48,505 nucleotides of DNA from a virus (taxonomy: Duplodnaviria > Caudoviricetes): IMG/VR virus record IMGVR_UViG_3300010052_000211, positions 1-48,505 of that record. The stretch is one strand, 5' to 3'. The translations under genes and the position numbers were made by a program. Of the stretch, positions 5,625 to 48,117 are shown in pieces. The notes below the pieces were generated by a model that saw nothing but the letters and a program-made list of their open reading frames with translations, did no database searches and was not told where the DNA came from. Position 1 is the stretch's first letter. The number at the start of each line of letters is the position of its first letter.

Positions 5625-6013
5625 AACCTCTCTCCCGTCCGTCGATCGACAACGGTGCCGTCGAGTTTCTGCTTGATGTTGCTATCGCGGCCGAACGGCA
5701 GCTTTCGCCGCCAGCGATCCTTGATCCCGAAGTTGTAGTCGCGGACGTGTCGGACCTTGGCGATGACCGGCTTGTCGTAGTTGTCGGTCTTGATGCGCCA
5801 GCAGGTCTTTGTCAGGACGGCGGCGTTTTCCAGATCGTTGCGCTTCGAGATCGCATCCGGGTCGATGTGCTCGAAGAACGTATTGCCGGGGCCGATCGGG
5901 CGCCGGCACGGAATCGGAAACACATGCGGGATCAGGTGGCATTCGCAGATGCCGCCGGATCGCTCCAGGGCAGCGCGCTTGACCGAAGAGGGGAATTCGG
6001 CTCGGGGGGTCAT
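5621..6013 (-). CDS. HNH-like endonuclease
   Basis: 'RSGGICECH...FEHIDPD...NDLENAAVLTKTCWRIKT' follows the HNH/Zn pattern, partly degenerate. Confidence 0.7.
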   Translation of the reverse strand: MTPRAEFPSSVKRAALERSGGICECHLIPHVFPIPCRRPIGPGNTFFEHIDPDAISKRNDLENAAVLTKTCWRIKTDNYDKPVIAKVRHVRDYNFGIKDRWRRKLPFGRDSNIKQKLDGTVVDRRTGERL

Positions 6014-6498
6014 GTTGGCACCGTGAGCATGCCAAGGCCACGCGAGCGCGCTTCACGCAATGCGAAGGTACCGGCTTCGCCGAGCGCCATGAGGCAAGTG
6101 CCTTGTGCCGGCGATGTTCCTGGGTTCCCGTCCGCGTCGATGAATTTGAGCTTCGGCGACACAAATAGCAGTGCGTCGGCACGCGGCGCGAACTGCTGAA
6201 ACCATGGGGCTGACGTGCGATCGGGCACGAGCGCGATGCCGTTGCCATGGTCGAAAAACTTGGCGAGCCAAGGCAATAGTCCGTTCCGCCCGCCGAAGGG
6301 CGGGTTCATCCAGACAAAGCCGATCCATGGCTCGCTAAGGCTGTTGGTGGTGATGAAGCGTTTCGCGGGTATCCATGGCGTTACAGCGGCACCGGGCGAT
6401 GCGACGTCGTCATTGAACCGCGCGCCCAATTTCTGGAAGACGTGCGGCGGTGTGTACCACTCGTCTGTCGCGCCGATGCACTGTTCGTGAAGAGCCAT
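6010..6498 (-). CDS. Phage Dam-type N6-adenine DNA methyltransferase
   Basis: 'DEWYTP', 'DVAS', catalytic 'WMNPPF', 'ALVPDRTSAPWFQ'. Confidence 0.85.
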   Translation of the reverse strand: MALHEQCIGATDEWYTPPHVFQKLGARFNDDVASPGAAVTPWIPAKRFITTNSLSEPWIGFVWMNPPFGGRNGLLPWLAKFFDHGNGIALVPDRTSAPWFQQFAPRADALLFVSPKLKFIDADGNPGTSPAQGTCLMALGEAGTFALREARSRGLGMLTVPT

Positions 6499-6653
6499 CA
6501 GCCGGCGCTCCCCTGCACCTTCACGATCAGCCCGACATTGGCGATCACGTATCCGCAGAGGATCGCCGCATCCGACCACATGCGCTGGTGAAGCCAGATG
6601 CTCGCCTGTCCGGCGTAGAGAAGGGTGACGATCCAGAGAAGGGCGGTGTTCAT
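6498..6653 (-). CDS. Small two-TM membrane protein (not in ORF track)
   Basis: MNTALLWIVTLLYAGQASIWLHQRMWSDAAILCGYVIANVGLIVKVQGSAG*; coupled on both sides. Confidence 0.6.
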   Translation of the reverse strand: MNTALLWIVTLLYAGQASIWLHQRMWSDAAILCGYVIANVGLIVKVQGSAG

Positions 6654-13387: not shown

Positions 13388-13623
13388 ACCGCGCCGTTCG
13401 CAAGCTTATCCTGCGTGCGTTCTTTCAGTCGATCGACTCTCACTCGATCGCGTTCTGTGCGCGCACCAGCGGTGAAGCCCCGGACATGACAGCCGACAAG
13501 GTCGAAGACCTGTGGGCCGAAGAATTCAAGGACAGCCCGTTCGTGCGCGAACTCGGGCCGCGACCGAAATTCGGCTATCCGCACACCGACAAGCGCGATC
13601 TCGCTGAAAGGCTTTACGCATGA
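13384..13623 (+). CDS. Hypothetical phage protein
   Basis: ATGA-coupled on both sides. Confidence 0.55.
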
Positions 13624-13904
13624 TGCCGCAGACCGAAACCGAAACCGCACCGCGCGAACACGCGCACACCCGCTTCGCCAAGGAACAGCTCAAGGCTTTC
13701 GTCGAGCGCATCGAGCGTCTCGAAGAAGAAAAGAAAGCCACCCAGGACGACATCAAGGACGTCTACGCCGAGGCCAAGGGCAACGGCTACGACGTCAAGG
13801 CTCTCCGCAAGGTCATCTCGCTGCGCAAGCAGGACGCCAACGAGCGGCAGGAAGAGGCCGCGGTGCTGGAGACGTATCTCCATGCGTTGGGGATGCTGGC
13901 ATGA
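13620..13904 (+). CDS. gapR: GapR-like DUF2312 nucleoid-associated protein
   Basis: '[17 protein letters not shown]...[27 protein letters not shown]...[10 protein letters not shown]'. Confidence 0.9.
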
Positions 13905-15502
13905 TGCTCGCCCCGCAAGATATCCCGCTCGATCAAATCCGGCCGTCCCGCGTCGCGCGCACGGTCGCGCCGGGCCAGGTGATGGCCTTGGCCGAGAGCA
14001 TCAAACAGATCGGGTTATTGCAGCCGGTCACTGTCAGGCCGGTCGCGGACGGGTTCGAGATCATCGCCGGCGGGCACCGGTGCGAGGCGGCAAGGACGCT
14101 GGAATGGTCAACCATCCCGGCCTTCGTGCGTTCCGACGACGACCTGCACGCCGAACTGGCGCTGATCGACGAAAACCTGATCCGGAACGAACTGTCGCCG
14201 GCGGAACGAGCGCTTGCGCAAGCTCGCCGCAAGAAAATCTATGAGGCCCTACACCCCGAAACCAAGATCGGGGCGACCGGCAAGGGCAGGGCTAAGGTTC
14301 GCCAAGTTGGCGAACCTAACGACACCAGAGCCGACCGGTACACGAAACAGGCTGCGGACAAGCAGCAGGCCTCCGAGCGCACCGTGCAGCGCGAAGTGTC
14401 GCGCGGCGAAGCTCTGCCGGCCGAAGTCCTGACCAAGGTCGCCGGGACCGCGCTCGACACCGGTGAGCAGCTTGACGCCTTGGCGAAGCTCACCCCGGAG
14501 CGTGCGGCCGAACTCGTCGACCGCGCCGCCGCCGGTGACAAGGTCAACGCCGTCGCTGCGGTGAAGGCGGACAAACGCGAGGCCAAGGAAAAGGCGCTGG
14601 CGGACAAGACCGTGGCGCTGCCGCTCGCCAAGTTCAATGTGATCTATGCCGATCCGCCATGGCGCTTCGAACCGTACAGCCGGGAGTCCGGCATGGATCG
14701 CGCACCGGAGAACCACTATCCGACGATGACACTGCAGCAGATCCTCGACCTGCCGGTGCCGACCGTTGCTGCCGACGACTGCGTGCTGTTCCTGTGGGCC
14801 ACGGTGCCGATGCTGCCGGAAGCCTTCCAGGTCATGACGGCCTGGGGCTTCACCTACAAGTCGCACTGCATCTGGAACAAGGATGCGCTCGGCACCGGCT
14901 ACTGGTTCCGCAACAAACATGAGCTGCTGCTCGTCGGTGTGAAGGGCAAGATCCCCGCGCCGCTGCCCGGCACTCAATCCGCCAGCGTGATCGACGGCCC
15001 TGTGAAGGATCACAGCCGCAAGCCGCTGATCTTCCGCGGTATGATCGAAGGCTTGTTCCCGAACCTGCCGAAGATCGAATTGTTCGCGCGCACACCGGCA
15101 CCCGGCTGGGGCCAGTGGGGCAAGGAAGCGCCCGAGATCGGCGTGGACGACAACGAAGCATCGATCGACCACGTCACCGCTGAAGACCGGCTTATGGACG
15201 CGCACCGCGCCGACGATAACGATGGCGTGCGCAATGCGCCGGAAGGCGGATTTGAAATCGAAGCGGAGAGAGGGGCCATTGCATCGGTCGACCTTGCTGA
15301 TGCTGTCGGCGTCGAAACCTCCATCGCTTCGCCAGAGCCCGCATCTGTCACGTCATGCGTGGTGGGTGCGGGCTCGCCTGTCGAAACGCCGAAGTGCGCG
15401 ATCTGTGGCGGATCATGCAAGCCGACGTTCTGTCCGAATGATCCGGCGCTTGAGATTCCGAAGTTCTTGCGGCGCGCTGCGGAACCGGAGGCTGCCGCAT
15501 GA
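13901..15502 (+). CDS. ParB-N domain fused to MT-A70 adenine methyltransferase
   Basis: N-terminal '[25 protein letters not shown]'; C-terminal 'VIYADPPW', 'LFLWAT', 'HSRKP', 'IELFAR'. Confidence 0.9.
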
Positions 15503-16230
15503 CGCCCCGCATCGAACAGCTATCCGAAGGGGTGACTCTTCATCTGGGAGACTGCAGGGAAATCCTGCCGACACTTCCGAAGGTGGATGCTGTCGTGACC
15601 GATCCGCCTTATGGGATCAAACGCGCCGCCGGGATGGGCGGCAAAGGATATGACGGGTTCGGTAACGGCGCTGTGCGCAAGCCGCGGCAATATTCGGCCG
15701 ATGGCTGGGATGATGAGCGTCCGCCGCAAGCCGCGTTCGATGCCATCCGCGCTGCAGCGGAACGCGCAATAGTCTGGGGCGGAAACTACTTCTCCGATCT
15801 CCTGCCAGCGTCTCAAAAGTGGTTGTGGTGGGACAAGATGCAGACGATGCCGTCGTATTCGGACGGCGAGTTGGCGTGGACTAGCCTACCTGGCACGTCC
15901 ACAAAGAAGTTTGTCTACAACGGCTCAGGCTTGATGGCTGCTGAAAAGGGGCGCGAGCACCCTACGCAAAAGCCGGTTGAGCTTATGCGCTGGTGCATAG
16001 GCCTCATACCCCCCCCTGCGACCCTGATCCTCGATCCCTTCATGGGTTCCGGCACCACAGGCGTTGCCGCCGTCAAGCTCGGCCGCAAGTTCATCGGCAT
16101 CGAGATCGAGCCCAAGTATTTCGACATCGCCTGCAATCGCATCAGCGAAGCCTTGAAGCAGCCCGACATGTTCGTCGAGTCGCCCAAGGCCGACGCATCA
16201 AAACAGGAATCGCTGTTCGCGGCCGAATGA
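15499..16230 (+). CDS. Beta-class N4/N6 DNA methyltransferase
   Basis: 'VTDPPYG' precedes 'HPTQKP' and 'DPFMGSGTT'. Confidence 0.92.
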   Translation: MTPRIEQLSEGVTLHLGDCREILPTLPKVDAVVTDPPYGIKRAAGMGGKGYDGFGNGAVRKPRQYSADGWDDERPPQAAFDAIRAAAERAIVWGGNYFSDLLPASQKWLWWDKMQTMPSYSDGELAWTSLPGTSTKKFVYNGSGLMAAEKGREHPTQKPVELMRWCIGLIPPPATLILDPFMGSGTTGVAAVKLGRKFIGIEIEPKYFDIACNRISEALKQPDMFVESPKADASKQESLFAAE

Positions 16231-33205: not shown

Positions 33206-33633
33206 CGCGCGACGAGCGGGCGCTGCGGCGCCGGGTTCAATACCATCTGCGCAAGGCGATGCGCGCTGCGGTGGGCCGGCCGATGCAGTGGGGCCGGGAC
33301 GACTGCGCGCTGTTTCACGGCGATGTGCATCTGGCGGCAACCGGGTTCGATCCGTGCTCGGCCTATCGCGGGCGCTACCGCACGATGCGCGGCGCACATC
33401 GGGTACTGGGCCGGGGTGGTCTGCCCAAGGCGCTGCGCGCCGTCGCGCGCCGGCAGGGCTGGCGGCGGGTCAAGGCGGTCGATGCCCGGATCGGCGATGT
33501 CGGGCTGGTGCCGGTCGGCCGTGCTGTGGCGGTCGTGGTCTGTGTTCGCTGGGGTGAGTGGGTGGGCCGTAACGAAGCAGGCTTTTCGATCGTTCCGTCA
33601 GCGGCGGTGAGGGTAGCATGGACCATCTGTTGA
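33202..33633 (+). CDS. NlpC/P60-like tail-associated protein (gpK-like)
   Basis: 'WGRDDCALF...RGRY...ARIGDV'. Confidence 0.7.
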   Translation: MTRDERALRRRVQYHLRKAMRAAVGRPMQWGRDDCALFHGDVHLAATGFDPCSAYRGRYRTMRGAHRVLGRGGLPKALRAVARRQGWRRVKAVDARIGDVGLVPVGRAVAVVVCVRWGEWVGRNEAGFSIVPSAAVRVAWTIC

Positions 33634-35297
33634 GGCTGAACCGGTACGCGGGAGATGATCTGCACTGGGCCGGTGTGCCCCGCGAGCCGATTTCAACCTC
33701 GATTGCTTTAACGGCTCTCATTTTCAACTCGTTGAGTGCCGCCGGTATTGCAATATCTGTTGGCGCGGCGGGAGCCATCGGCGGTGCGCTGATCACCGGC
33801 GCAGTTCTTGTCGGCGCTCAGTTTGCGCTTCGGAAGTCTGTTCCTGATGTAGGGGGACTCGACTCTACTGGAGTAGCGAATGTTAACACGCCCTCTGCGC
33901 GCGGGTCGATCCGCGAGTCGGCATCGCCGCAGCGCCGCATCTATGGTCGGGTGGGTGGTCTGGGTGGCGGCTGGCTGTTCTATGACGATGCGACGGCGCA
34001 ATACCAGTATCTCATGCTGGGTCTGGCGCGGGGGCGCATCCACGCTATCCGCTCCGTGACGATCAACAATAACCGGATCACGTTCTCGGGCGGAACGCCG
34101 TTCAACACCATCCTCGATCCGGTCGGAGTGGAAGGGCAGGATTACGTCGGTAATCTAAAAGCCTGTTTCCGAAATGGCAGCGCTGACCAGACGAAAGACC
34201 CCTTGCTCGACGCCTATTTCCCGGCAAGCGGAAGCGAGATCGTCTACGACAGCACCGGGCTCAATGTAGTCAATCTGCCGACGTCGTTCCGGCAAAGCGG
34301 CTATGCGACCGCGTCGTTCCGCGCGAAATTCGGCTCGACTCAAGATCAGTTCGATGCTCGCTGGGGGCATGTCGCTTACATCAATCCGCTGATGGAAGTC
34401 GACGGCCATCCGCTGTTCGATCCGCGCGATCCGTCGCAGGACATGAACGACGAGAGTACCTGGAAGTTCTACTACGATGGCCGCGAGCCGGGACGGAATC
34501 CGACGCTGATCCAGCGGGACTGGTTGTGCCAGCCTTTCGGCGGCCGGCTGCGTCCCGATCAAATCCGTCTCGATGAGATGATCGAAGCTGCCAACTACGA
34601 CGACGAAATGGTTGGTGACCGCGACGGCAATCTGCGGGTTCGCCACCAGGCCGATGGGCTTGTGCTGCTCAACGAAAACCCGCGCCACGTGACGGAAGCA
34701 ATGCTGACCGCAAACCGGGCATGGATCGTCAATTCGCGCGGGAGATCAGGATGGGTGGCGTCAAAGCCGCTCACGCCGGTGCTCACGATCACCGAAACGG
34801 ATATTCGCGGCGGCTTCGACTTCCGCGACAGCGCGGCCAAGAACGATCAGTTCAACCGGGTCCGCACGCGCTTCCCGTCTCCGGACAAGGATTTTGCAGA
34901 GGATGACGGCCCCGTGCTCGACCGTGCCGATCTGCGCGCGGACGAGGATGGCGACGAACTGCTCGACACCAGCGTGCGCACGCCATTCACGACCGATCAG
35001 CGCGCCGTGCAGTGGCTGTCCCAGCAGTTCTTGGAAGACTCCCGCACCGGAAAGGCGCTCGACATCGCTAATCTCGACGCGATCTCCGCGCGCATCCTGA
35101 AGCGCAAGCTCGGCAACGTCGTGCGCGTGCAGCACCGCTTTTACCCAGAAATCGATGGCATCTATCAGATCCGCAAGGATGCGATCTCGTCGGACTGGAC
35201 CGGCGTGTCGTGGTCGCTGCGGGAATACGATTCGTCGATCGCGTCGCGTGATCGGTCGGCAGACCAGCAAGATTATCAGGTCGGCGAAGCCGCCTAA
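33618..35297 (+). CDS. Tail tip/central fibre protein (gpJ-like)
   Basis: 'RRIYGR', 'DPRD', 'NP.L...D', 'FNRVR.RF'; position. Confidence 0.75.
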   Translation: MDHLLRLNRYAGDDLHWAGVPREPISTSIALTALIFNSLSAAGIAISVGAAGAIGGALITGAVLVGAQFALRKSVPDVGGLDSTGVANVNTPSARGSIRESASPQRRIYGRVGGLGGGWLFYDDATAQYQYLMLGLARGRIHAIRSVTINNNRITFSGGTPFNTILDPVGVEGQDYVGNLKACFRNGSADQTKDPLLDAYFPASGSEIVYDSTGLNVVNLPTSFRQSGYATASFRAKFGSTQDQFDARWGHVAYINPLMEVDGHPLFDPRDPSQDMNDESTWKFYYDGREPGRNPTLIQRDWLCQPFGGRLRPDQIRLDEMIEAANYDDEMVGDRDGNLRVRHQADGLVLLNENPRHVTEAMLTANRAWIVNSRGRSGWVASKPLTPVLTITETDIRGGFDFRDSAAKNDQFNRVRTRFPSPDKDFAEDDGPVLDRADLRADEDGDELLDTSVRTPFTTDQRAVQWLSQQFLEDSRTGKALDIANLDAISARILKRKLGNVVRVQHRFYPEIDGIYQIRKDAISSDWTGVSWSLREYDSSIASRDRSADQQDYQVGEAA

Positions 35298-35311: not shown

Positions 35312-36589
35312 ATGGCTCAATCCGCTCTTCCCGCGGCCATTGCGGCGCGCGACCCCGCCGCCATGCGCGCGGCCATCGTCGGCGAGCTCGTGCCGGTGAT
35401 CCCGTCGAATATTGATCCGCAGACGTGGGACCCGCGCGAGCTCGGGACGTCGGGCGGTAATGTCTGGCAGGCGGTGATCTGGCAGGAACGCATCTGGTAT
35501 CGCGACGAGACCAGCGTAGCCGATCATGATGAGGTGACGGTTATCGCGCTGCTCGATGGCGGCCGATACCTGACCAACGATGTGAAGTTTCCAGGTTCGG
35601 TCAAGTCGCGAGCCGTCACGACGCCGCCCGATCCGCTGGACGCCGATCCCGGCGCGCGGCCGGCTTATGGCGAGGCCTGGCGCGTGCCGACGGGCGCTTC
35701 CGGGGCGTGGTCGGCGCACGAAGACGATGTGGCGATGTGGTCCGCGCGAGGGTGGCGGTATAAGCCGGCTGCGACCGGCGATCTCCACTATGTCGAAGAC
35801 GAGAGCACGTTCGAGCATTTCAGCGCCGCGGCCGCTTGGGAAGATGGCATCCCGTTCGGGGTGACAGCCTCCACGATCCCGCAGTCGGCGCTGATCTGGG
35901 ACGGCCGCGTCCAGAACCAGACCACCAACGCGCCGCCATCCGCAGCACAGGGAGTGGCCTATATCATCGGCCCGTCACCGACGGGTGCATGGGACGGGAA
36001 TGCCGGAAAGCTCGCGATCCGCGAGAGCGCCGGCACCAATTCGACATATGTGATCTATACGCCGAAGGTTGGGCAGCCGGTGTTCGACATTGCTCTTGGA
36101 ATTCCTGTTCGGTGGGATGGGACTGCTTGGGTTTCCGCTTCCGGCGCGTGGGTCGGACAGAAGGCGGTGTTAACCGCCGCATCAACCGTGGGGGCGACAT
36201 CCGGAAGCGGATTTTATGGCGGTTACAAGAACAACCAAACGCCAGCCGGCGAGGCCAAACGAACCGATGGTGCACCGCTGTCTTATACCGCAAAGCGCGC
36301 TGGCGTTGATTTGCGGTTCATGGTGCAAGCGACTTGTGATCTGACAATACCTAGCACTGGTCACACTGTGCTGGCTGTCGCGCTTTATCGCGACAGCGAG
36401 ACAACAGCGATTGATTACACATCGCTCTATTGCAAAGAGTCCGGCGAAATCCAGATTTCCGCGATTTTCCGCGTCACGGCGATCGATGCGCTGTCTCATA
36501 CATATAAATGGGCCGTCTTGGCCTGGGATAATTCGAACGGGGCGAACAGCTTTAGCCGTCGCACATTCGAAGTGATGGAGGGTGCGTGA
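35312..36589 (+). CDS. Fibre/spike protein with two DUF2793-like repeats
   Basis: 'TPP...G..W.VPTGASGAWSAH...W...GW' and 'APP...G.AYIIGPSPTGAWDGNAG...WDGTAW'. Confidence 0.7.
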   Translation: MAQSALPAAIAARDPAAMRAAIVGELVPVIPSNIDPQTWDPRELGTSGGNVWQAVIWQERIWYRDETSVADHDEVTVIALLDGGRYLTNDVKFPGSVKSRAVTTPPDPLDADPGARPAYGEAWRVPTGASGAWSAHEDDVAMWSARGWRYKPAATGDLHYVEDESTFEHFSAAAAWEDGIPFGVTASTIPQSALIWDGRVQNQTTNAPPSAAQGVAYIIGPSPTGAWDGNAGKLAIRESAGTNSTYVIYTPKVGQPVFDIALGIPVRWDGTAWVSASGAWVGQKAVLTAASTVGATSGSGFYGGYKNNQTPAGEAKRTDGAPLSYTAKRAGVDLRFMVQATCDLTIPSTGHTVLAVALYRDSETTAIDYTSLYCKESGEIQISAIFRVTAIDALSHTYKWAVLAWDNSNGANSFSRRTFEVMEGA

Positions 36590-37167
36590 TGGCTGGTACG
36601 CCACATCCTTTTGCGGCGCCCTATGCGAACCGCGATGCATCAGATCTGCTCTCTGCGGAGAAGGTCTATAACCGCAAGACCATTGCCGACACAAATGCCA
36701 TCGTCAATGGCGATTGGTCGGGACAATTCGGCGGCCTGCATCTGCTGTCGGATAATTCCGACTGGGATATCGACACGTCAGATACGACGACGGCCGCCGA
36801 CCATGTGAATTTCGAGCGGGATGCGAATGGCATTCTGTTCAAGCGGGTGCAGCCGACCGTCACGGTGACTTCGAAACTCATCACAGCAACAGGCAACGTC
36901 ACGATTGCCGATGATGAGGCGGCGGACGAGATCGAGATCAACAACACGAGCGCGGGCGCGATCAACGTTTATTTGCCGGACGTCGCGTTGCGCGACAAGT
37001 CCATCACGATCACCGATGTGGCCGGGAACGCCGCGACGAAAACCATCACGGTGCTGCCTAAGTCCGGCAGCGGCCAGACGATCATGACCGGCTCAAGTTG
37101 GCTTATCGACAGCAACGGCGGCGGCATCAAGCTCACGCCGAATTCAGCCAAGACCGGCTACAAGTAA
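36586..37167 (+). CDS. Putative fibre adaptor/connector
   Basis: C-terminal 'AINVYLP...ITITDVAGNAATKTITV...GQTI' resembles T4 gp9/gp34-N-type fibre-attachment repeats. Confidence 0.5.
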   Translation: MMAGTPHPFAAPYANRDASDLLSAEKVYNRKTIADTNAIVNGDWSGQFGGLHLLSDNSDWDIDTSDTTTAADHVNFERDANGILFKRVQPTVTVTSKLITATGNVTIADDEAADEIEINNTSAGAINVYLPDVALRDKSITITDVAGNAATKTITVLPKSGSGQTIMTGSSWLIDSNGGGIKLTPNSAKTGYK

Positions 37168-37179
37168 GGGCCTTCAAAC

Positions 37180-39348
37180 ATGATTCGATCTGCCTCGCGG
37201 CTTCTTGCCGCAGCGCTCTCGCTTTGCCTTGTCGTGCCGGCTTTGGCCCAGGTGCAGCCCGGACAGTCGCCGCTGTCCATCAGCAAGGGCGGCACGGGCC
37301 GCGCGAGCCTGACGCCAAATGCGTTGCTCTTCGGCAATGGCACATCACCCGTCCAGATGTACGGTTGCACTGGCTTCCTCGTCGGAACCGGTACGGGGGC
37401 TGCTCCGACTTGCCGCGCGATTGTGGGCACGGATTTGCCAAACCCTTCGACCTCATCGCTGGGTGGTGTGCAAAGCAAGACCTGTTCCGCCAGCCAGTGG
37501 ATCAACACGATTTCCACCACCGGTGTTCCGGCGTGCACGCAACCTGCCGCAGGGGACCTTTCGGGAGGTCAAGCCGTCACCAGCGCCAATGACACCAATG
37601 TCACGGTGACGCTGGGCGGCACGCCGGCGTCAGCCGCCCTGAAGGCGTTTTCCATGACCATGGGCTGGAGCGGTCAACTCGCGGTCGGTCGGGGTGGCAC
37701 CGGGCTTTCGGCCGGCACGTCAGGCGGTATCCCATACTTCAGCAGTGCATCGGTCATGGCGTCGTCTGGCGCATTGACACAATACGGCGTCGTGCTGGGC
37801 GGAGGCGCGGGGGGCGCGCCGACGTCGACGGCCAAGGGCAGCGCCGCGCAAATATTGATCGGCCAAACCGCTGCGCCGACCTGGAACGACATGACCGGCG
37901 ACGTCACGATCAGCGCATCTGGCGTGACGGCGATCGGCACCAACAAGGTCACGAACGCGCAGATGCGGCCGGCCGGGGCGCTGTCGCTGATCGGCCGATC
38001 GGCCAACTCGGCAGGCAATGTCGCTGATATCTCGGCCACGGCCGCGAGCGATTGCGTCTATCGGGAGAGCGGGTCAGCGCTGGGGTGCGGCACGGTTGCC
38101 ACGGCGGGAATTGCCAACAGCGCGGTGACGAATGCCAAGCTCGCCAGCATGGCGAACAACACGTTCAAAGGGAACGTGTCTGGCAGTACGGCTACGCCGT
38201 CCGACCTCACTGCAACCCAGGTTACCGCAGCGCTCAACGGATGCGTCGGTGACGGCGGCTCAGGTGGGACGAAAGGTCTGGCGCCGGCGCCTGGAGCCGG
38301 CGATGCCGCCGCCGGGAAGTTTTTGAAAGCGGACTGCACATGGGCCGCGCCGGCCGGCGGCGGCGGCGGGGGCATGACCGCGACCGAGCGGCAGAATTTC
38401 GCGCTGTCGATAATTTATCAGTCGAAATCTATGGCCGAGTATCGCCGACTGGTCGGTATGTTTGCGACTGGTTTTAAGGGTGCGAACGACACACTGAATG
38501 GCGTCAATTCCGTCGCGAGCACCGGCTATTCCCCCGACTCTACGAATGGTCGATACTCGCCATCGACAACGCCCGGTAGCAACCAAATCCCACTAATGAC
38601 GGCGGCGACGACATCCGGCGTCACGATGTCGGCGGACTCGGAATTCAGTGGGTCGTTCCCGGCGTGGCAGGCGGGCAACCGCAACGCTAGTGATTTCTGG
38701 TCATCCACATCGACTGCCTTTCCGCATTGGCTGAAGGCGGACTTCGGGACCGGCAAGACCATAGCGAGCTATACCATCCAAGTCCGTTCGGACGGCTCGA
38801 ACGCTCCCGCCGCGTGGACTTTTGAGTGCTCGAACGACAATTCGAGCTGGTCGACCATGGACACCCAGTCTGGGCAGACCTGGACCGGCGGGCAGCTCAA
38901 GACCTTCAATATCGCGTCGCCCGCGAGCTGTCGTTACTACCGCATCAATGTTAGTTCTGGCAGCGACCCGAGCACGCTCCAGATTGCCGAAGTCACCATG
39001 TTGACGGCGTCTGTCGCCAACAACATGACGTTGATCACGACTGCTCAGACCACGGATGCGTCGGTCACCAACAATCGTATCCTCATTGAATATGACGACA
39101 CATGTGGAGGCTGCAACTCGGCGGCGCTCAACACCGATTTGACCGCTGAAGTGACCTGCAACGGCGGCACCAATTGGGCGACCGCGACGCTGTCGGCCGT
39201 GACCTCTTATTCCGGGACGTCGACGCAGCGGAAGGTTGCTGAGACGTCCGACACCGCATGCACGTCGGGCACGTCGTTTGCCGCACGCATCAAGACGCTC
39301 AACAGCAAGTTTTTCTACATCCACGGCGTTTCGAACACGGTGCACTAA
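37180..39348 (+). CDS. Tail-fibre-like protein with Sec signal peptide and discoidin (F5/8-C) domain
   Basis: Signal MIRSASRLLAAALSLCLVVPALA|Q; fibre motifs 'GGTG', 'AVTNAKLA', 'GLAPAPGAGD..KFLKAD'; discoidin 'PHWLKADFG...P.AWTFE.SND...RYYRINV'. Confidence 0.75.
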   Translation: MIRSASRLLAAALSLCLVVPALAQVQPGQSPLSISKGGTGRASLTPNALLFGNGTSPVQMYGCTGFLVGTGTGAAPTCRAIVGTDLPNPSTSSLGGVQSKTCSASQWINTISTTGVPACTQPAAGDLSGGQAVTSANDTNVTVTLGGTPASAALKAFSMTMGWSGQLAVGRGGTGLSAGTSGGIPYFSSASVMASSGALTQYGVVLGGGAGGAPTSTAKGSAAQILIGQTAAPTWNDMTGDVTISASGVTAIGTNKVTNAQMRPAGALSLIGRSANSAGNVADISATAASDCVYRESGSALGCGTVATAGIANSAVTNAKLASMANNTFKGNVSGSTATPSDLTATQVTAALNGCVGDGGSGGTKGLAPAPGAGDAAAGKFLKADCTWAAPAGGGGGGMTATERQNFALSIIYQSKSMAEYRRLVGMFATGFKGANDTLNGVNSVASTGYSPDSTNGRYSPSTTPGSNQIPLMTAATTSGVTMSADSEFSGSFPAWQAGNRNASDFWSSTSTAFPHWLKADFGTGKTIASYTIQVRSDGSNAPAAWTFECSNDNSSWSTMDTQSGQTWTGGQLKTFNIASPASCRYYRINVSSGSDPSTLQIAEVTMLTASVANNMTLITTAQTTDASVTNNRILIEYDDTCGGCNSAALNTDLTAEVTCNGGTNWATATLSAVTSYSGTSTQRKVAETSDTACTSGTSFAARIKTLNSKFFYIHGVSNTVH

Positions 39349-39349
39349 C

Positions 39350-40717
39350 ATGCAATCACAATGGACGCTTCTGAGCGGCGCGATTCCGATTCCGACGGGT
39401 GACGGAATGAGTTCGTGCGTCTTGGATGGCAAGATGTATTCGGTCGGCGGTTGGCAAGCAAACGGTGTCAGCAACAATCGCGTGTTCAGAACCGCCGACG
39501 GCACGAATTGGTCGGAGAGCGAAGTCGCGAGAACGTGGTCCGGGCGGCATACGGCTCCGGTCATCGTGAGCGGCGGAAAGATGCGTGTGATCGGTGGCGA
39601 CATCGATACGGGCGAGTACGATCCGAACTGTCATTCCTGGGATGGTCTCGAAACCTCGCCATGGGTCGCGGAGCCGAGCTTTGCCCCGTTGAATCGGATC
39701 GGCCACTGGGCGCTGGGCGACTTCGGCGGTTATGACTGGTTCGGCGGCGGCCAGACTATGACGCCTGCCAGTCCGGCTCCGACGGAGTTCTTCACGGATC
39801 GCTGGCGGCGGCTGGCCGGCTCGACCGATGCGTGGCAGCTCTACGATGGCGACAGCGCGATCGGTGCGCGCGGCTTCATCTGTGGCGCGCCGCCGGTGAT
39901 TGACGGCGAGGCGTTCTTCATCGGCGGCGGCACCTATCAGACTTCAGACTATCCGGATCGGCTGCACCGCAACGACATCATGGTCATGGGCTCGGATTTC
40001 AGGATCCGCTGCGCCAGCCCCAAGAACCAGATGCCGGGGATGATCTTCCACTCGGTCGCCGAGCTGAACGGCGCGCTGGTCATCGTCGCTGGCCATGACG
40101 GCTCGAACCAGAAGGCCGTGTGGGCCTCGTTCGACAAGGGCAAAACCTTGGTGAGGCTGTCTGACTTCCCGGGCGCCGCCACCCATGCCGGCACGCTGCA
40201 GAAGTTCAACGGCGCGCTCTACTTCTGGGGCGGCCTCGAGACCGGCCAAAACTGCTGGTGCCTGGAGATGGTGGATGAAAGCAAGGTCCACTACGGCGCC
40301 GCGCCGAACGGCACGACCAACATGGGTGTGACCTACACGATCGCCGATCGTTCGCAGGCTCTCGTGCCGGGCAAAACGGTCGCATCTGTCGGTCTGCATT
40401 GTGCCTACGCACATGCCGGCGTGCGCGCGAAGATCGTTCGCGAGAACAGCCCGACCAATTATGACGTAGTGTTCAACGGCCCTGCATCCAATCACGCTGG
40501 CGGCGGCTGGCGCGATTTCCCGGTGGGGTTCGTTGTGCCGAATGATGGGGCGACCTATCGGGTGGCATTCTCGTTCGCCTACACGCCGAGCCAGCCCGAC
40601 TCCTACGCGTATGGTAGCGACACCCGGGCCAACGTTGCGGGGGATGCATCAGGCAACGGCATCGCCATGTTCGTGACGAACGATGGCACGTTCCCGATGC
40701 GGTGGACGGAGGCTTAG
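39350..40717 (+). CDS. Kelch-like beta-propeller protein with C-terminal beta-sandwich
   Basis: Repeated 'G.MY.VGG / MRVIGG / WFGGG / FFIGGG / YFWGG' blades; start coupled to the fibre gene. Confidence 0.7.
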   Translation: MQSQWTLLSGAIPIPTGDGMSSCVLDGKMYSVGGWQANGVSNNRVFRTADGTNWSESEVARTWSGRHTAPVIVSGGKMRVIGGDIDTGEYDPNCHSWDGLETSPWVAEPSFAPLNRIGHWALGDFGGYDWFGGGQTMTPASPAPTEFFTDRWRRLAGSTDAWQLYDGDSAIGARGFICGAPPVIDGEAFFIGGGTYQTSDYPDRLHRNDIMVMGSDFRIRCASPKNQMPGMIFHSVAELNGALVIVAGHDGSNQKAVWASFDKGKTLVRLSDFPGAATHAGTLQKFNGALYFWGGLETGQNCWCLEMVDESKVHYGAAPNGTTNMGVTYTIADRSQALVPGKTVASVGLHCAYAHAGVRAKIVRENSPTNYDVVFNGPASNHAGGGWRDFPVGFVVPNDGATYRVAFSFAYTPSQPDSYAYGSDTRANVAGDASGNGIAMFVTNDGTFPMRWTEA

Positions 40718-41592
40718 AGCCGCGGCATGGGCCGCAGGTTCGGATATCCGCCGCGGGCTGCGGCCGAGGTGTAGGTTTTCACCCCGGTCGTGTCAGACAG
40801 CGTCGGGTCGTAGCGATAGTCATACCCGCGCATGATGAGCGTGTAGGTGACGTCGCCCGACAGATTGACCGTCGAGGTGTGCGGCAGGTTTTGGTGGAAG
40901 AACGCTGCCGTATTCGCGGGCAGGTCGCACATGTAGTCCTCGAACTCGGCGATGTCGTCTTCCGGGATCTGGAGCTGATGGAAGAAATCAGCCTCGGATA
41001 CCTCGTTCGACTCCTTCGCGTTGAAGCCGGTGTACTCCACGAACTGGTGCGGCTTCTTGTGGCCGCCGAGCTTGACGATCATTGCGCCATTGTTCTCGGC
41101 TTTGTCGCGGATCACCGGCATCCAGAAATTGTAGAAGTTTCGGCGCTGCGGGTAGTAGTGCTCCTCAGAGTGGAATTTGTAGAGGCGCGTCTCGTTCTTT
41201 GGCAAATTGATCAAGATGCCATCCATGTGGATTTTGAGCAGCGAAGCGGGGCAACCCAGCGCCTCAGAAGAGATCCGGAGGAATTCAGGGTTGCACATCA
41301 GCTCGTTGGCCGCCGGCGTCTCGCGCAACGACTGAACGATAAAGTCGAGCGCGGCCTTGCTGGTCGAGTTGATGCGCGTCACAAGGTCATCGATCGCTTG
41401 TGGGGTAGGGGTGTTCTCGTCGATCTCCACGGCATTGACGAGACGGAGCTTGAAAGCCTGGACCAGTAAGCGGTGGTAGAAGGTCGTAACGAACGCGTCG
41501 ACGTCCTCCTTCGGAAAGACGTCCGCAAAGATCGAGATGCCGGCGTTGTCGTAGCTCAGGTTTCGTTTTACCCCATCGCTATGTTTCTGCAT
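40714..41592 (-). CDS. PhyH-like 2-oxoglutarate/Fe(II) dioxygenase (moron)
   Basis: 'FHSEEHYY...NFWMP...NGAM...GGHK...FFHQNLPHTS.VN'. Confidence 0.75.
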   Translation of the reverse strand: MQKHSDGVKRNLSYDNAGISIFADVFPKEDVDAFVTTFYHRLLVQAFKLRLVNAVEIDENTPTPQAIDDLVTRINSTSKAALDFIVQSLRETPAANELMCNPEFLRISSEALGCPASLLKIHMDGILINLPKNETRLYKFHSEEHYYPQRRNFYNFWMPVIRDKAENNGAMIVKLGGHKKPHQFVEYTGFNAKESNEVSEADFFHQLQIPEDDIAEFEDYMCDLPANTAAFFHQNLPHTSTVNLSGDVTYTLIMRGYDYRYDPTLSDTTGVKTYTSAAARGGYPNLRPMPRL

Positions 41593-41717
41593 GGCGTCCC
41601 CCTATGACGATTATCGAAAAGGTTGTTTATTTTAATTTATACACCCTGTTTTGGCTGGGTTCAATCTTGCGGAACTTGGACGAATGTACAATGCTGCCAG
41701 GGGGTTAAAGGTGATTG

Positions 41718-42473
41718 ATGGCGCAGAAGATTGGTGTTGAGACCGGGTCGTCCGGCGAAGAGTTGGATCGGCGATCGCAGTTCCGGAAGGATTTCCGCGA
41801 AGTGCCGATGGGCGAAGCGGAGTTGATGAGCAACCTTGGGCTGTTCATCCGGCGCCAGAGCCTGGCGCGCATGTTGTTCATGAACGAGATCTACAAGCTC
41901 ATTTTAGACACGCCCGGCGTGATCATGGAGTTCGGTATCTGCTATGGCCAGAACATGGCGCTGTTCGCTAACCTGCGCGGACTGTACGAGCCGTTCAACC
42001 ATCATCGGAAGATCATTGGCTTCGATACGTTCACCGGCTTCCCGTCGGTCGACGAGAAAGACGGCAACGCGCCCGGCATGGAAGTCTCGACCTATTCGAC
42101 GGGCAAAGAATACAAGGCCTATCTGGAACGCATCCTCTCGTATCATGAGAGCGAGAGCCCGATTGCGCACAAAAAGAAGTTCGAGCTGATCGAGGGCGAT
42201 GCGTGTGAGACGGTGCCGGCCTATCTCGGCGCTCATCCGGAGACGATTGTAGCGCTCGCCTATTTCGACTTCGACATCTACAAGCCGACCGAAGTAGCAC
42301 TGCGCGCGATCATGCCACGCCTCACGAAGGGTAGCGTCATCGGTTTTGATGAACTGAATCAGGAAAGCTTCCCCGGCGAGACTGTCGCCCTGCAGGAAGT
42401 CCTTGGCTCGCTCAACATTCGGCTTCGACGGCTGCGGATCACCGCAGATCCAGCGTTCTATGTCGTCGAATAG
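41718..42473 (+). CDS. TylF/MycF-like class I SAM O-methyltransferase (moron)
   Basis: 'PGVIMEFG...GFDTFTGFP...EGDA..TVP...YFDFDIYKPT...FDE...PGE'. Confidence 0.8.
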   Translation: MAQKIGVETGSSGEELDRRSQFRKDFREVPMGEAELMSNLGLFIRRQSLARMLFMNEIYKLILDTPGVIMEFGICYGQNMALFANLRGLYEPFNHHRKIIGFDTFTGFPSVDEKDGNAPGMEVSTYSTGKEYKAYLERILSYHESESPIAHKKKFELIEGDACETVPAYLGAHPETIVALAYFDFDIYKPTEVALRAIMPRLTKGSVIGFDELNQESFPGETVALQEVLGSLNIRLRRLRITADPAFYVVE

Positions 42474-46914: not shown

Positions 46915-48117
46915 ATGCCAACCGTTGTTCTCACCGCGAGTTTTGTGCGTTCCGCATCGTGTCCCACCGACGCGAAGAAGGTCGATTTTTTCGACGGTGG
47001 GCAGCGCGGGTTCCTGCTCGAGGTCCGCTGTTCAGGCGGCAAGACTTTTTATCAGCGCTATTCGGATGCCCGTGGACGCGCGCGGCAATTCAAGATCGGG
47101 CCGGCCGACGTTCTCACGCTCGATCAGGCGCGGCGCAAAGCGCGGCATATTCTCGCGCAGGCGGTGCTCGGCACGGATCCGCAGAAGCAGCGGCAGGAAG
47201 CGCGCGCCATTCCGCGGCTCGCACAGTTCGCGCAGGATCGCTATCTGCCCTACGTCCAGACCTACAAGAACAGCTGGCAGACCGACGAGACGGTTTTACG
47301 TGTCCATATCCTGCCGCGGCTTGGATCGCTGGCGCTCGATGAAGTCACGACCGATGCGATCTCGGACGTGATCGCGCGCATGCGCGAGAGCGGATACGCC
47401 ACCGGCACCATGAACCGCGTGATCGTCATCTTGCGCTACATGTTCAATCTAGCGCGCAAGTGGAAGGTGCCGGGCGTCACCGACAATCCCGCCAGCGCTC
47501 TCTCCGCCGGCCCCGACGTCCAGCGCAATCGCTTCCTCAGCGAGACCGAGGTCGAGTGTCTGGTCGATGCGATCCGCAAGGATGAGAACCAGACGGCCGC
47601 GCGCGCGATCCTGCTGCTGCTGCTCACGGGCGCGCGGCGCAATGAGATCACCTTCGCGCGTTGGGATTATGTCGACTGGGACAATCGCACGCTGCTGGTG
47701 CCGCGCTCGAAGTCCGGGCGCGCGCGCGTGATCGCCCTCAATCAGGCGGCGATCGCGCTGTTGCAGGCGGCGCCGCGGATTGCCGGCAATCCGTACATCC
47801 TGCCGTCGCCGGTCAATGGCCGGCCGTCGCCATCGCTATTCTTTCCCTGGGATCGCATCCGCAAGCGGGCAGGGCTTGAAGATGTGCGGCTGCACGATTT
47901 GCGGCATTCCTTTGCGAGCTTCCTCGTCAATCGCGGCGTGTCGCTTTACGTCGTGCAAGGACTGCTCGGTCACCTGCATGCGCGCACGACACAGCGCTAC
48001 GCGCATCTCACCCGTGAGACGTTGAGCGATGCCGCCGATCTCATGCAGGACGTTGTCGCGGGGCCGCTGAAAGGCGGATTGCCGGATGCGGGTGCAACAG
48101 CGAGCCCGACGAATTAA
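46915..48117 (+). CDS. Second tyrosine integrase (P4-like, arm-binding N-terminus), outside the prophage
   Basis: 'GGKTFYQRY...FKIG...LTLDQAR', 'TGARRNE', 'KSG', 'LHDLRHSFAS', 'LLGH...TQRYAH'. Confidence 0.92.
   Translation: MPTVVLTASFVRSASCPTDAKKVDFFDGGQRGFLLEVRCSGGKTFYQRYSDARGRARQFKIGPADVLTLDQARRKARHILAQAVLGTDPQKQRQEARAIPRLAQFAQDRYLPYVQTYKNSWQTDETVLRVHILPRLGSLALDEVTTDAISDVIARMRESGYATGTMNRVIVILRYMFNLARKWKVPGVTDNPASALSAGPDVQRNRFLSETEVECLVDAIRKDENQTAARAILLLLLTGARRNEITFARWDYVDWDNRTLLVPRSKSGRARVIALNQAAIALLQAAPRIAGNPYILPSPVNGRPSPSLFFPWDRIRKRAGLEDVRLHDLRHSFASFLVNRGVSLYVVQGLLGHLHARTTQRYAHLTRETLSDAADLMQDVVAGPLKGGLPDAGATASPTN

Follow-up and report, generated by a model that had tools for sequence, protein, structure and literature searches.

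A predicted exported tail fibre and its putative docking on a dedicated adaptor in a temperate tailed phage

To our knowledge, tailed phages are taken to build their whole particle in the cytoplasm. A gene in the IMG/VR virus record IMGVR_UViG_3300010052_000211 raises the question of whether one part of the tail could reach the particle by another route. The window analysed here comprises all 48,505 nt of this record, and the gene in question (37180-39348, +) is an intact open reading frame (ORF) for a fibre of 722 amino acids that likely begins with a Sec-type signal peptide, putatively cleaved before residue Q24. Homology to annotated fibres and a place after the tail-tip genes indicate that the product is probably a side tail fibre or receptor-binding protein. 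We propose that this distal fibre would be exported and disulfide-bonded, and that at or after lysis it would plug onto an adaptor built in the cytoplasm and encoded directly upstream (36589-37167, +); on the evidence set out below, we regard this account as probable.

The sequence-only reading of the locus had described a signal peptide in fibre position, with a basic N-terminus, a hydrophobic core and the cut site ALA|Q, and this description is upheld by sequence, operon order and relatives. The leader carries R3 and R7, an uncharged hydrophobic core (best 10-residue mean hydropathy 2.69), P20, and A21-L22-A23 ahead of Q24. Leaders were scored throughout with a heuristic of our own, not with SignalP, and the same leader type was found in 49 of the best 120 relatives (query included; 877 matches overall). 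These relatives, together with a ribosome-binding-like site ahead of the ATG, led us to reject a start-codon artefact, and the start holds at the ATG rather than downstream of the leader. A lipoprotein leader was rejected because C16 has Leu at -1 and is missing from most relatives' leaders, and a Tat leader because there is no RR pair. Beyond the leader, the fibre chain shows no further evident hydrophobic helix.

The mature chain has exactly 14 cysteines (63, 78, 102, 119, 292, 303, 355, 386, 550, 584, 642, 645, 660 and 694), and an additional one, C16, lies within the leader. It had been claimed that the 14 form seven local pairs; the number stands, while sequence covariation backs the pairing of four pairs only (102/119, 292/303, 355/386 and 660/694). 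Leaders and cysteines were compared over the best 120 relatives, 49 leader-bearing and 71 leaderless, the latter set containing a number of fragments and at least one protein (P0102) whose start was miscalled. Whole-protein BLAST columns were unreliable in the Gly/Ala-rich shaft and were replaced by module-wise alignment of the cysteine pairs. The median cysteine content was 1.19% in leader-bearing and 0.35% in leaderless relatives, and cysteine counts were even in 43/49 versus 41/71. Positions 355 and 386 were both cysteine in 9/31 leader-bearing and 1/50 leaderless relatives, with a single cysteine in no relative; the corresponding counts were 9/17 and 0/22 for 292/303, and 4/4 and 0/16 for 102/119. 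Signal peptide and cysteines thus covary among the homologues, three pairs being almost confined to leader-bearing proteins. The suggestion that cysteines had replaced residues that are usually Gly was also correct, as the position of C386 is mostly Gly in relatives and that of C550 is Gly in 17/19 aligned relatives. The fibre is likely disulfide-bonded in the periplasm, where host Dsb enzymes would presumably oxidise the cysteine pairs. Placing the leader label on a quickly built tree of 65 proteins takes 13 changes, of which five or more are forced by well-supported branches; the distal part has therefore alternated repeatedly between the two forms, by gain, loss or recombination.

How would such a fibre be held on the particle? 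Its own polypeptide carries no particle anchor; the anchor found in fused relatives is here encoded by a separate upstream gene. Fused loci (L003-L005, L012-L014) have a single long leaderless fibre gene after the DUF2793 gene, whereas in split loci (the window, L007, L010, L057 and L058) the same slot holds a gene of ~190 residues and then a leader-bearing fibre. The adaptor of the window is likewise leaderless and of ~190 residues, and it most likely starts at ATG 36589, one codon past GTG 36586, because close relatives begin there. The profile of its N-terminal half, the anchor, recognises the opening ~90 residues of leaderless fibres in 16 cases and those of leader-bearing fibres in none, with a further weak match to tailspike 5W5P (residues 58-104, E 0.0097). 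The C-terminal half is homologous to the XD1 domain of CBA120 TSP4 (profile match to TSP4 100-173 at E 6e-5, and to gp10 at E 0.08-0.1), and its model, with a predicted local distance difference test score (pLDDT) of 94, matched 7REJ and a KP1 baseplate chain in Foldseek, both at E 9e-5. Here and in most small relatives XD1 is terminal rather than an internal spacer between flanking domains. A leaderless fused relative (P0098) joins anchor, XD1 and shaft in one chain, the kind of layout from which a stop and a leader, once inserted, could have produced the split form. Elsewhere, terminal XD1 is fused to known virion anchors, for example a distal tail protein (P0199) or a PHROG tail-fibre N-terminus (P0250).

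Across many phages, with tails of different kinds, a terminal XD1 is accompanied by a leader-bearing fibre gene. In a fibre-first survey of 40 loci, 33 of them unique and complete, an XD1-terminal gene stood directly upstream of the fibre in 6/8 leader-bearing and 0/25 leaderless loci. An adaptor-first survey took the best 80 of 148 viral XD1 matches, chosen blind to the neighbour and with L148-L164 left out of the tally. The gene after XD1 had a leader in 65/80 loci and none in 13, two loci having no adjacent gene; when clustered at 90%, 59/74 loci had a leader-bearing next gene. The background of leader calls in the XD1 loci was 58/354 among other ORFs and 19/65 among upstream neighbours. 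Such a next gene followed 53 of the top 54 matches, the negatives being confined to weaker ones. A small residue and then Gln occupied the expected cut in 62/65 leader-bearing partners, and 44/56 complete partners had an even cysteine count. Among 401 bacterial genomes, 12 matches in 11 genomes comprised 10 XD1-terminal genes and two anchor-only leaderless proteins; a leader-bearing gene followed 9/10 of the former, one of the nine having belonged to the query alignment. Both long-tailed phages and, to judge by gene content, short-tailed ones are represented among the XD1 loci, with differing anchor halves. The succession of XD1, stop, signal peptide and plug acts like a portable cassette by which a one-piece fibre would become an exported one. 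A single-protein locus search with the fibre as query gave no loci, and the first adaptor alignment as query gave one viral and one metagenome locus. No cultured phage with the adaptor was found among 50,697 records using two fibre queries and four adaptor queries, the latter returning weak gp9/gp10-like or anchor matches only.

The predicted contact between the two proteins was modelled with three copies of adaptor residues 91-193 and three of fibre residues 24-131. The complex scored 0.93 in each of three runs (contact agreement at least 98%, partner pLDDT at least 91), and the best of three controls scored 0.00; the mark applied is reached by 116/157 solved complexes and 2/215 mismatched pairs, a calibration that is rough here as it used single-chain pairs and other alignments. 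The fibre side of the interface consists of mature residues 1-10 and 12-13, starting exactly at the predicted cleavage site Q24, and the XD1 side of conserved segments (domain positions 53-60, 76-79 and 82-92). Fibre residues 24-131 were confident as three copies (pLDDT 92), the copy number being an input. The model thus predicts a 3:3 complex between an XD1 trimer and fibre residues 24-36. In the 27 leader-bearing relatives chosen for comparison Q24 is invariant and G28, P31 and K36 are at least 90% conserved. When 72 pairs were compared, the four types of plug tracked the XD1 tree (6 changes versus a shuffled mean of 38) irrespective of anchor type, and D-[SG]-N occurs in the interface loop of 17/17 pairs of the window's plug type. 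The earlier idea of a secreted fibre docking via the upstream adaptor is therefore supported by leader/cysteine covariation, by the pairing of anchor and XD1 with the fibre, and by the complex model.

The remainder of the fibre consists of a shaft and a distal head. Shaft residues 184-357 are 53.7% identical (174 residues) to an annotated tail fibre of phage ppBdUSDA122-1; as a monomer the shaft was modelled with low confidence, and poorly over 18-312. The monomer model is confident for residues 400-722, where a CBM32 domain (464-610) is inserted between two conserved segments. The discoidin domain noticed earlier was confirmed by the PF00754 profile (49.6 bits against a cut-off of 28.2) and by the fold of 4ZXE (Z 20.1, root-mean-square deviation 1.6 Å, 129 residues aligned), and the CBM32 domain is likely sugar-binding. 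The shaft or C-terminal domain alone, which were barely probed, had no fold match reported.

We infer each step of the mechanism that follows, other than the plug-socket contact, which is predicted by the model. The adaptor trimer would join the tail, at the DUF2793 fibre or the tail tip, in the cytoplasm through its anchor. The fibre would be exported by Sec, cut at Q24 by signal peptidase I (SPase I), oxidised by host Dsb enzymes and trimerised in the periplasm. Lysis by holin and endolysin would mix the compartments, the fibre plug would meet the XD1 socket, and the CBM32 tip would then bind a surface sugar of the next host. As to the benefit of export, our guesses are disulfide stabilisation, or a sugar-binding tip kept apart until release.

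Several observations weigh against this account. The leader heuristic also flags 16% of other ORFs and assigns proteins to the wrong group when their start is miscalled or absent, and 13 weaker XD1 matches have no leader next door. Leader-like segments also begin the central tail-tip proteins of two related loci (L007 and L058). Positions 660 and 694 are both cysteine in 32/38 leader-bearing and 27/32 leaderless relatives and so do not depend on the leader, and covariation is slight or absent for 63/78 (2/8), 642/645 (one relative) and 550/584 (0/19 aligned). Because 660/694 is kept without a leader and disulfides are present in Milano virions, cysteine pairs alone do not require export, and the earlier argument that seven pairs imply the periplasm was too strong. 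The joint tracking of plug and XD1 is also expected from genetic linkage; it therefore indicates that the cassette moves as a unit and does not show binding. The complex model may echo solved fibres in which XD1 continues into the shaft, and the accessible part of PMC8825819 treats XD1 as a spacer with no capacity for axial binding of a trimeric partner. The reason given there, linkers on both faces, does not hold for a terminal XD1, which has one face free.

Some of these points would suit a leader that stays uncleaved as a membrane tether or folding aid, with assembly on the cytoplasmic side before lysis and cysteines oxidised later in air, a route already suggested for other virions rich in disulfides. 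The leader-independent C660/C694 pair and the leader-like starts of the two central tail-tip proteins fit such a scheme, as do disulfides in core virion proteins of Milano (PMC10491603) and of a siphovirus tail tube (PMC13576161, the available text of which considers that they could arise through host Dsb enzymes or by spontaneous oxidation). We nevertheless judge it unlikely. The full cleavage pattern is kept at low identity, down to the small residue and Gln of the 62 partners counted above, and the extra cysteine pairs in shared modules occur almost only with a leader. Moreover, the mature fibre shows no evident second membrane-type helix, and the modelled interface begins exactly where cleavage is predicted.

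Alternatively, the fibre might be exported and never join the particle, serving as a fibre-derived decoy, receptor blocker or adhesin released by a lysogen or late in infection. Its export signal, as read from the sequence, and its sugar-binding fold would suit this role; the leaderless DUF2793 fibre (35312) could serve the virion alone, and a few adaptor/fibre pairs (L061, L109) lie outside an obvious tail module. We think this quite improbable, given that it leaves unexplained a cytoplasmic partner with anchor and socket, the tight pairing of that partner with leader fibres, and the complex model. Phage ppBdUSDA122-1 has leaders on both of its side-fibre genes, and a weak scan of the adaptor-fibre interval in the window revealed no promoter-like or terminator-like site; both points also count against this reading.

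A further possibility is that the exported fibre is carried on the particle by another site or partner (a head spike, the DUF2793 fibre or the kelch protein encoded downstream), with the XD1 model reflecting a likeness effect. The capsid spike 9NY6 is among the weaker adaptor fold matches (E 0.075), and other attachment routes do exist, because 2/8 leader-bearing loci and ppBdUSDA122-1 have no adaptor. These adaptor-less fibres, however, differ in their mature N-terminus. In the adaptor-less type (L019, L027 and ppBdUSDA122-1) the side-fibre slot is filled by a pair of leader-bearing genes whose products begin, once mature, unlike the window fibre. In the window the adaptor occupies the slot of the fused fibre and carries its anchor, and the model controls scored 0.00, so that we give this alternative very little credence. 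Consecutive leader fibre genes after the central tail protein were observed at L001:10160-14241, L019:6104-10080 and L027:7277-11311, one of these loci being from a cultured Bradyrhizobium phage that is produced spontaneously.

Docking of an exported fibre on XD1, the account we prefer, resembles several known systems in part. The pIII protein of filamentous phages is a Sec-exported receptor-binding virion protein that is disulfide-bonded in the periplasm, remains membrane-anchored and is added during extrusion without lysis. In contrast, the window phage is of a lysing siphovirus type and its fibre is without an evident membrane anchor. As described in the accessible part of PMC8825819, CBA120 TSP4/TSP2 and G7C gp66 are like the window in that an anchor plus an XD-type protein holds a separately encoded trimeric receptor-binding protein. 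There XD2/XD3 dock and XD1 is an internal spacer, whereas the XD1 of the window ends its protein and is predicted to be the socket itself; moreover, the partner here has a signal peptide, and the plug would arise by leader cleavage. The MAT fibres of Bdellovibrio bacteriovorus are, according to the portion of PMC10769870 available, phage-like trimeric adhesive proteins with a signal peptide, tip disulfides and swapped sugar-binding tips; they are predator cell-surface proteins with a shared ~130-residue N-terminal domain and often an S74 chaperone. The window fibre has the signal peptide in common with them and lies instead in a phage tail operon with a virion-anchor adaptor. MAT chains were absent from our sequence and fold matches, the N-terminal part of the model being poor and no direct comparison having been made.

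Disulfides in tailed-phage structural proteins are on record for Agrobacterium phage Milano (PMC10491603) and a siphovirus tail tube (PMC13576161), where the available text places them in core capsid, neck and tail proteins; the window pairs are local and tied to the leader. The word 'periplasm' does not occur in the accessible text of either paper, nor 'signal peptide' in that of PMC13576161. In the Bradyrhizobium phage ppBdUSDA122-1, the proteins WAX24263.1/WAX24264.1 share with the window fibre a related shaft, a tail-fibre annotation, a leader, many cysteines and the same operon slot, in a phage whose particles have been seen; both side-fibre genes carry leaders, one with tail-collar fibre matches, and, unlike the window, this phage lacks an XD1 adaptor and has another N-terminus on the mature fibre. 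As far as PMC10127595 could be consulted, this phage is spontaneously produced as a siphophage, which makes it an accessible test case; the leader is not discussed, and 'signal' and 'tail fiber' are absent from the main text available. A literature search of incomplete coverage, with supplements excluded, found no description of exported fibres of tailed phages, and none appears in the accessible portions of PMC3556154, PMC13001222, PMC12656738 and PMC10127595. Disulfides in tailed virions, branched gp10-like docking and secreted phage-like fibres on Bdellovibrio are thus of already known kinds, while assembly by an exported fibre docking on a dedicated adaptor would be new as an assembly route for tailed phages.

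If the account is correct, tailed-phage assembly would involve a second compartment and be completed by a step after lysis, and infectivity would depend on the host Sec and Dsb systems. The locus offers a concrete mechanism, in which a socket of 100 residues would receive a plug of 13; interface residues can be named, among them D175, S176 and N177 of the adaptor, numbered from 36586. Genes for signal-peptide proteins within tail operons, which have often been put down as extras that benefit the host, may encode components of the virion. A natural means of attaching disulfide-bonded proteins to phage tails would be of interest for phage display and structural work. More speculatively, many soil and freshwater alphaproteobacterial phages, short- and long-tailed, might finish their particles outside the cytoplasm by this plug-socket cassette and take up fibres from a co-infecting phage, a prophage or a neighbour cell, and proteins such as P0273 and P0286 might then link fibres into chains; this we offer only tentatively and consider doubtful. 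On that view, loading after lysis onto few socket classes would let foreign fibres be acquired, and host range could then change without genome change. P0273 and P0286 are small leader-scored proteins with a plug-like start that themselves end in XD1, and in L097, L128, L130 and L136 such a protein is followed by another leader-bearing gene; small proteins of this type are possible exported extenders that chain fibres.

Table 1. Coordinates of the fibre cassette and adjoining genes in the window
Feature	Position	Strand	Basis
Proximal tail fibre with two DUF2793 domains, no leader	35312..36589	+	Pfam PF10983 and PHROG tail-fibre matches
Adaptor N-terminal half: particle-side anchor, no leader, no cysteine	36589..36855	+	Profile match
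Adaptor C-terminal half: terminal XD1 domain (T4 gp9/gp10, CBA120 TSP4 type), predicted socket	36856..37167	+	
Ribosome-binding-like site TAAGGG	37165..37170	+	Sequence; 9 nt upstream of fibre ATG
Sec/SPase I-type signal peptide (putative), fibre residues 1-23	37180..37248	+	Sequence, heuristic score
Mature N-terminal plug, Q24-K36	37249..37287	+	Predicted XD1-trimer contact, conservation
Gly/Ala/Thr-rich shaft with cysteine pairs 63/78, 102/119, 292/303, 355/386	37288..38376	+	
CBM32/discoidin domain, residues 464-610, inserted in distal head, with C550/C584	38569..39009	+	
C-terminal beta domain with C642/C645 and C660/C694	39013..39348	+	Conserved; common to leader-bearing and leaderless fibres
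Kelch propeller and C-terminal domain, no leader, seven cysteines	39350..40717	+	

The 48,505-nt record has a tyrosine integrase near either end (664-1767, -; 46915-48117, +) and a complete late operon running through terminase, portal, capsid, neck, tail tube, tape measure, distal tail protein (Dit) and hub. The hub is followed by DUF6950, the central tail protein, the DUF2793 fibre, the adaptor, the leader fibre, the kelch gene and lysis genes. The phage is a temperate, tailed, lysing siphovirus type, and its host is probably of the Tardiphaga/Afipia/Bradyrhizobium/Nitrobacter/Pseudolabrys group, since the named relatives come from records of these genera. The GC content of the fibre gene, overall and at third codon positions (GC3), is in line with the remaining late genes. 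A Pfam scan of 58 window ORFs, a part of the total, detected no Dsb-like gene. The DUF2793 gene sits 5' of fused and split fibre forms alike (L003, L005, L007, L010, L012, L057 and L058), and this gene order makes it the likely platform carrying the adaptor's anchor; against solved structures its product gave no useful match.

The kelch protein had been put forward as a partner of the fibre. This was not borne out, as it has no leader and its gene does not lie beside the fibre in the related loci viewed, where only its C-terminal domain was seen, as an insert within other fibres; those loci likewise give no support for counting it as part of the cassette. It may be an accessory receptor-binding protein.

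The C-terminal fibre domain also ends DUF2793-led leaderless fibres in L008, L011, L028-L030, L032, L036, L038 and L040, which stand after a tail protein of ~1,300 residues, several with identical downstream host genes; these loci resemble gene-transfer-agent clusters. Among the adaptor loci, L109:2574-5276 inverts the order of leader fibre and XD1 adaptor and does not lie in an evident tail module; at L061:10250-12276 no tail genes were recognised around the adaptor and its leader-bearing partner; and the XD1-terminal gene at L067:9607-10122 encodes an internal hydrophobic segment and has no fibre gene beside it. Short-tailed types (L017:6967-8025, L039:7720-8769, L065:5803-6930) have another leader-bearing tail-region protein upstream, in L039 although the fibre itself is fused and leaderless.

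The central tail-tip proteins at L007:5503-7098 and L058:9621-11234 (minus strand) have a signal-peptide-like start and then a second hydrophobic stretch, and that of the window (33618-35297) has a non-hydrophobic 22-residue leader at the equivalent place; the leader-like starts could be an inner-membrane tether for tail-tip assembly. Between the fibre genes and the endolysin, the window encodes a PhyH-family dioxygenase (40714-41592, -) and a TylF-like methyltransferase (41715-42473, +), possibly a surface-sugar modification pair, with a lower GC of 0.57-0.58; a TylF relative adjoins the fibre in L019. The window also encodes a GapR-like DNA-binding protein and three DNA methyltransferases (a ParB/MT-A70 fusion, an N6/N4 type and Dam), for which the coordinates 13620-13904 (+), 13901-16230 (+) and 6010-6579 (-) are listed.

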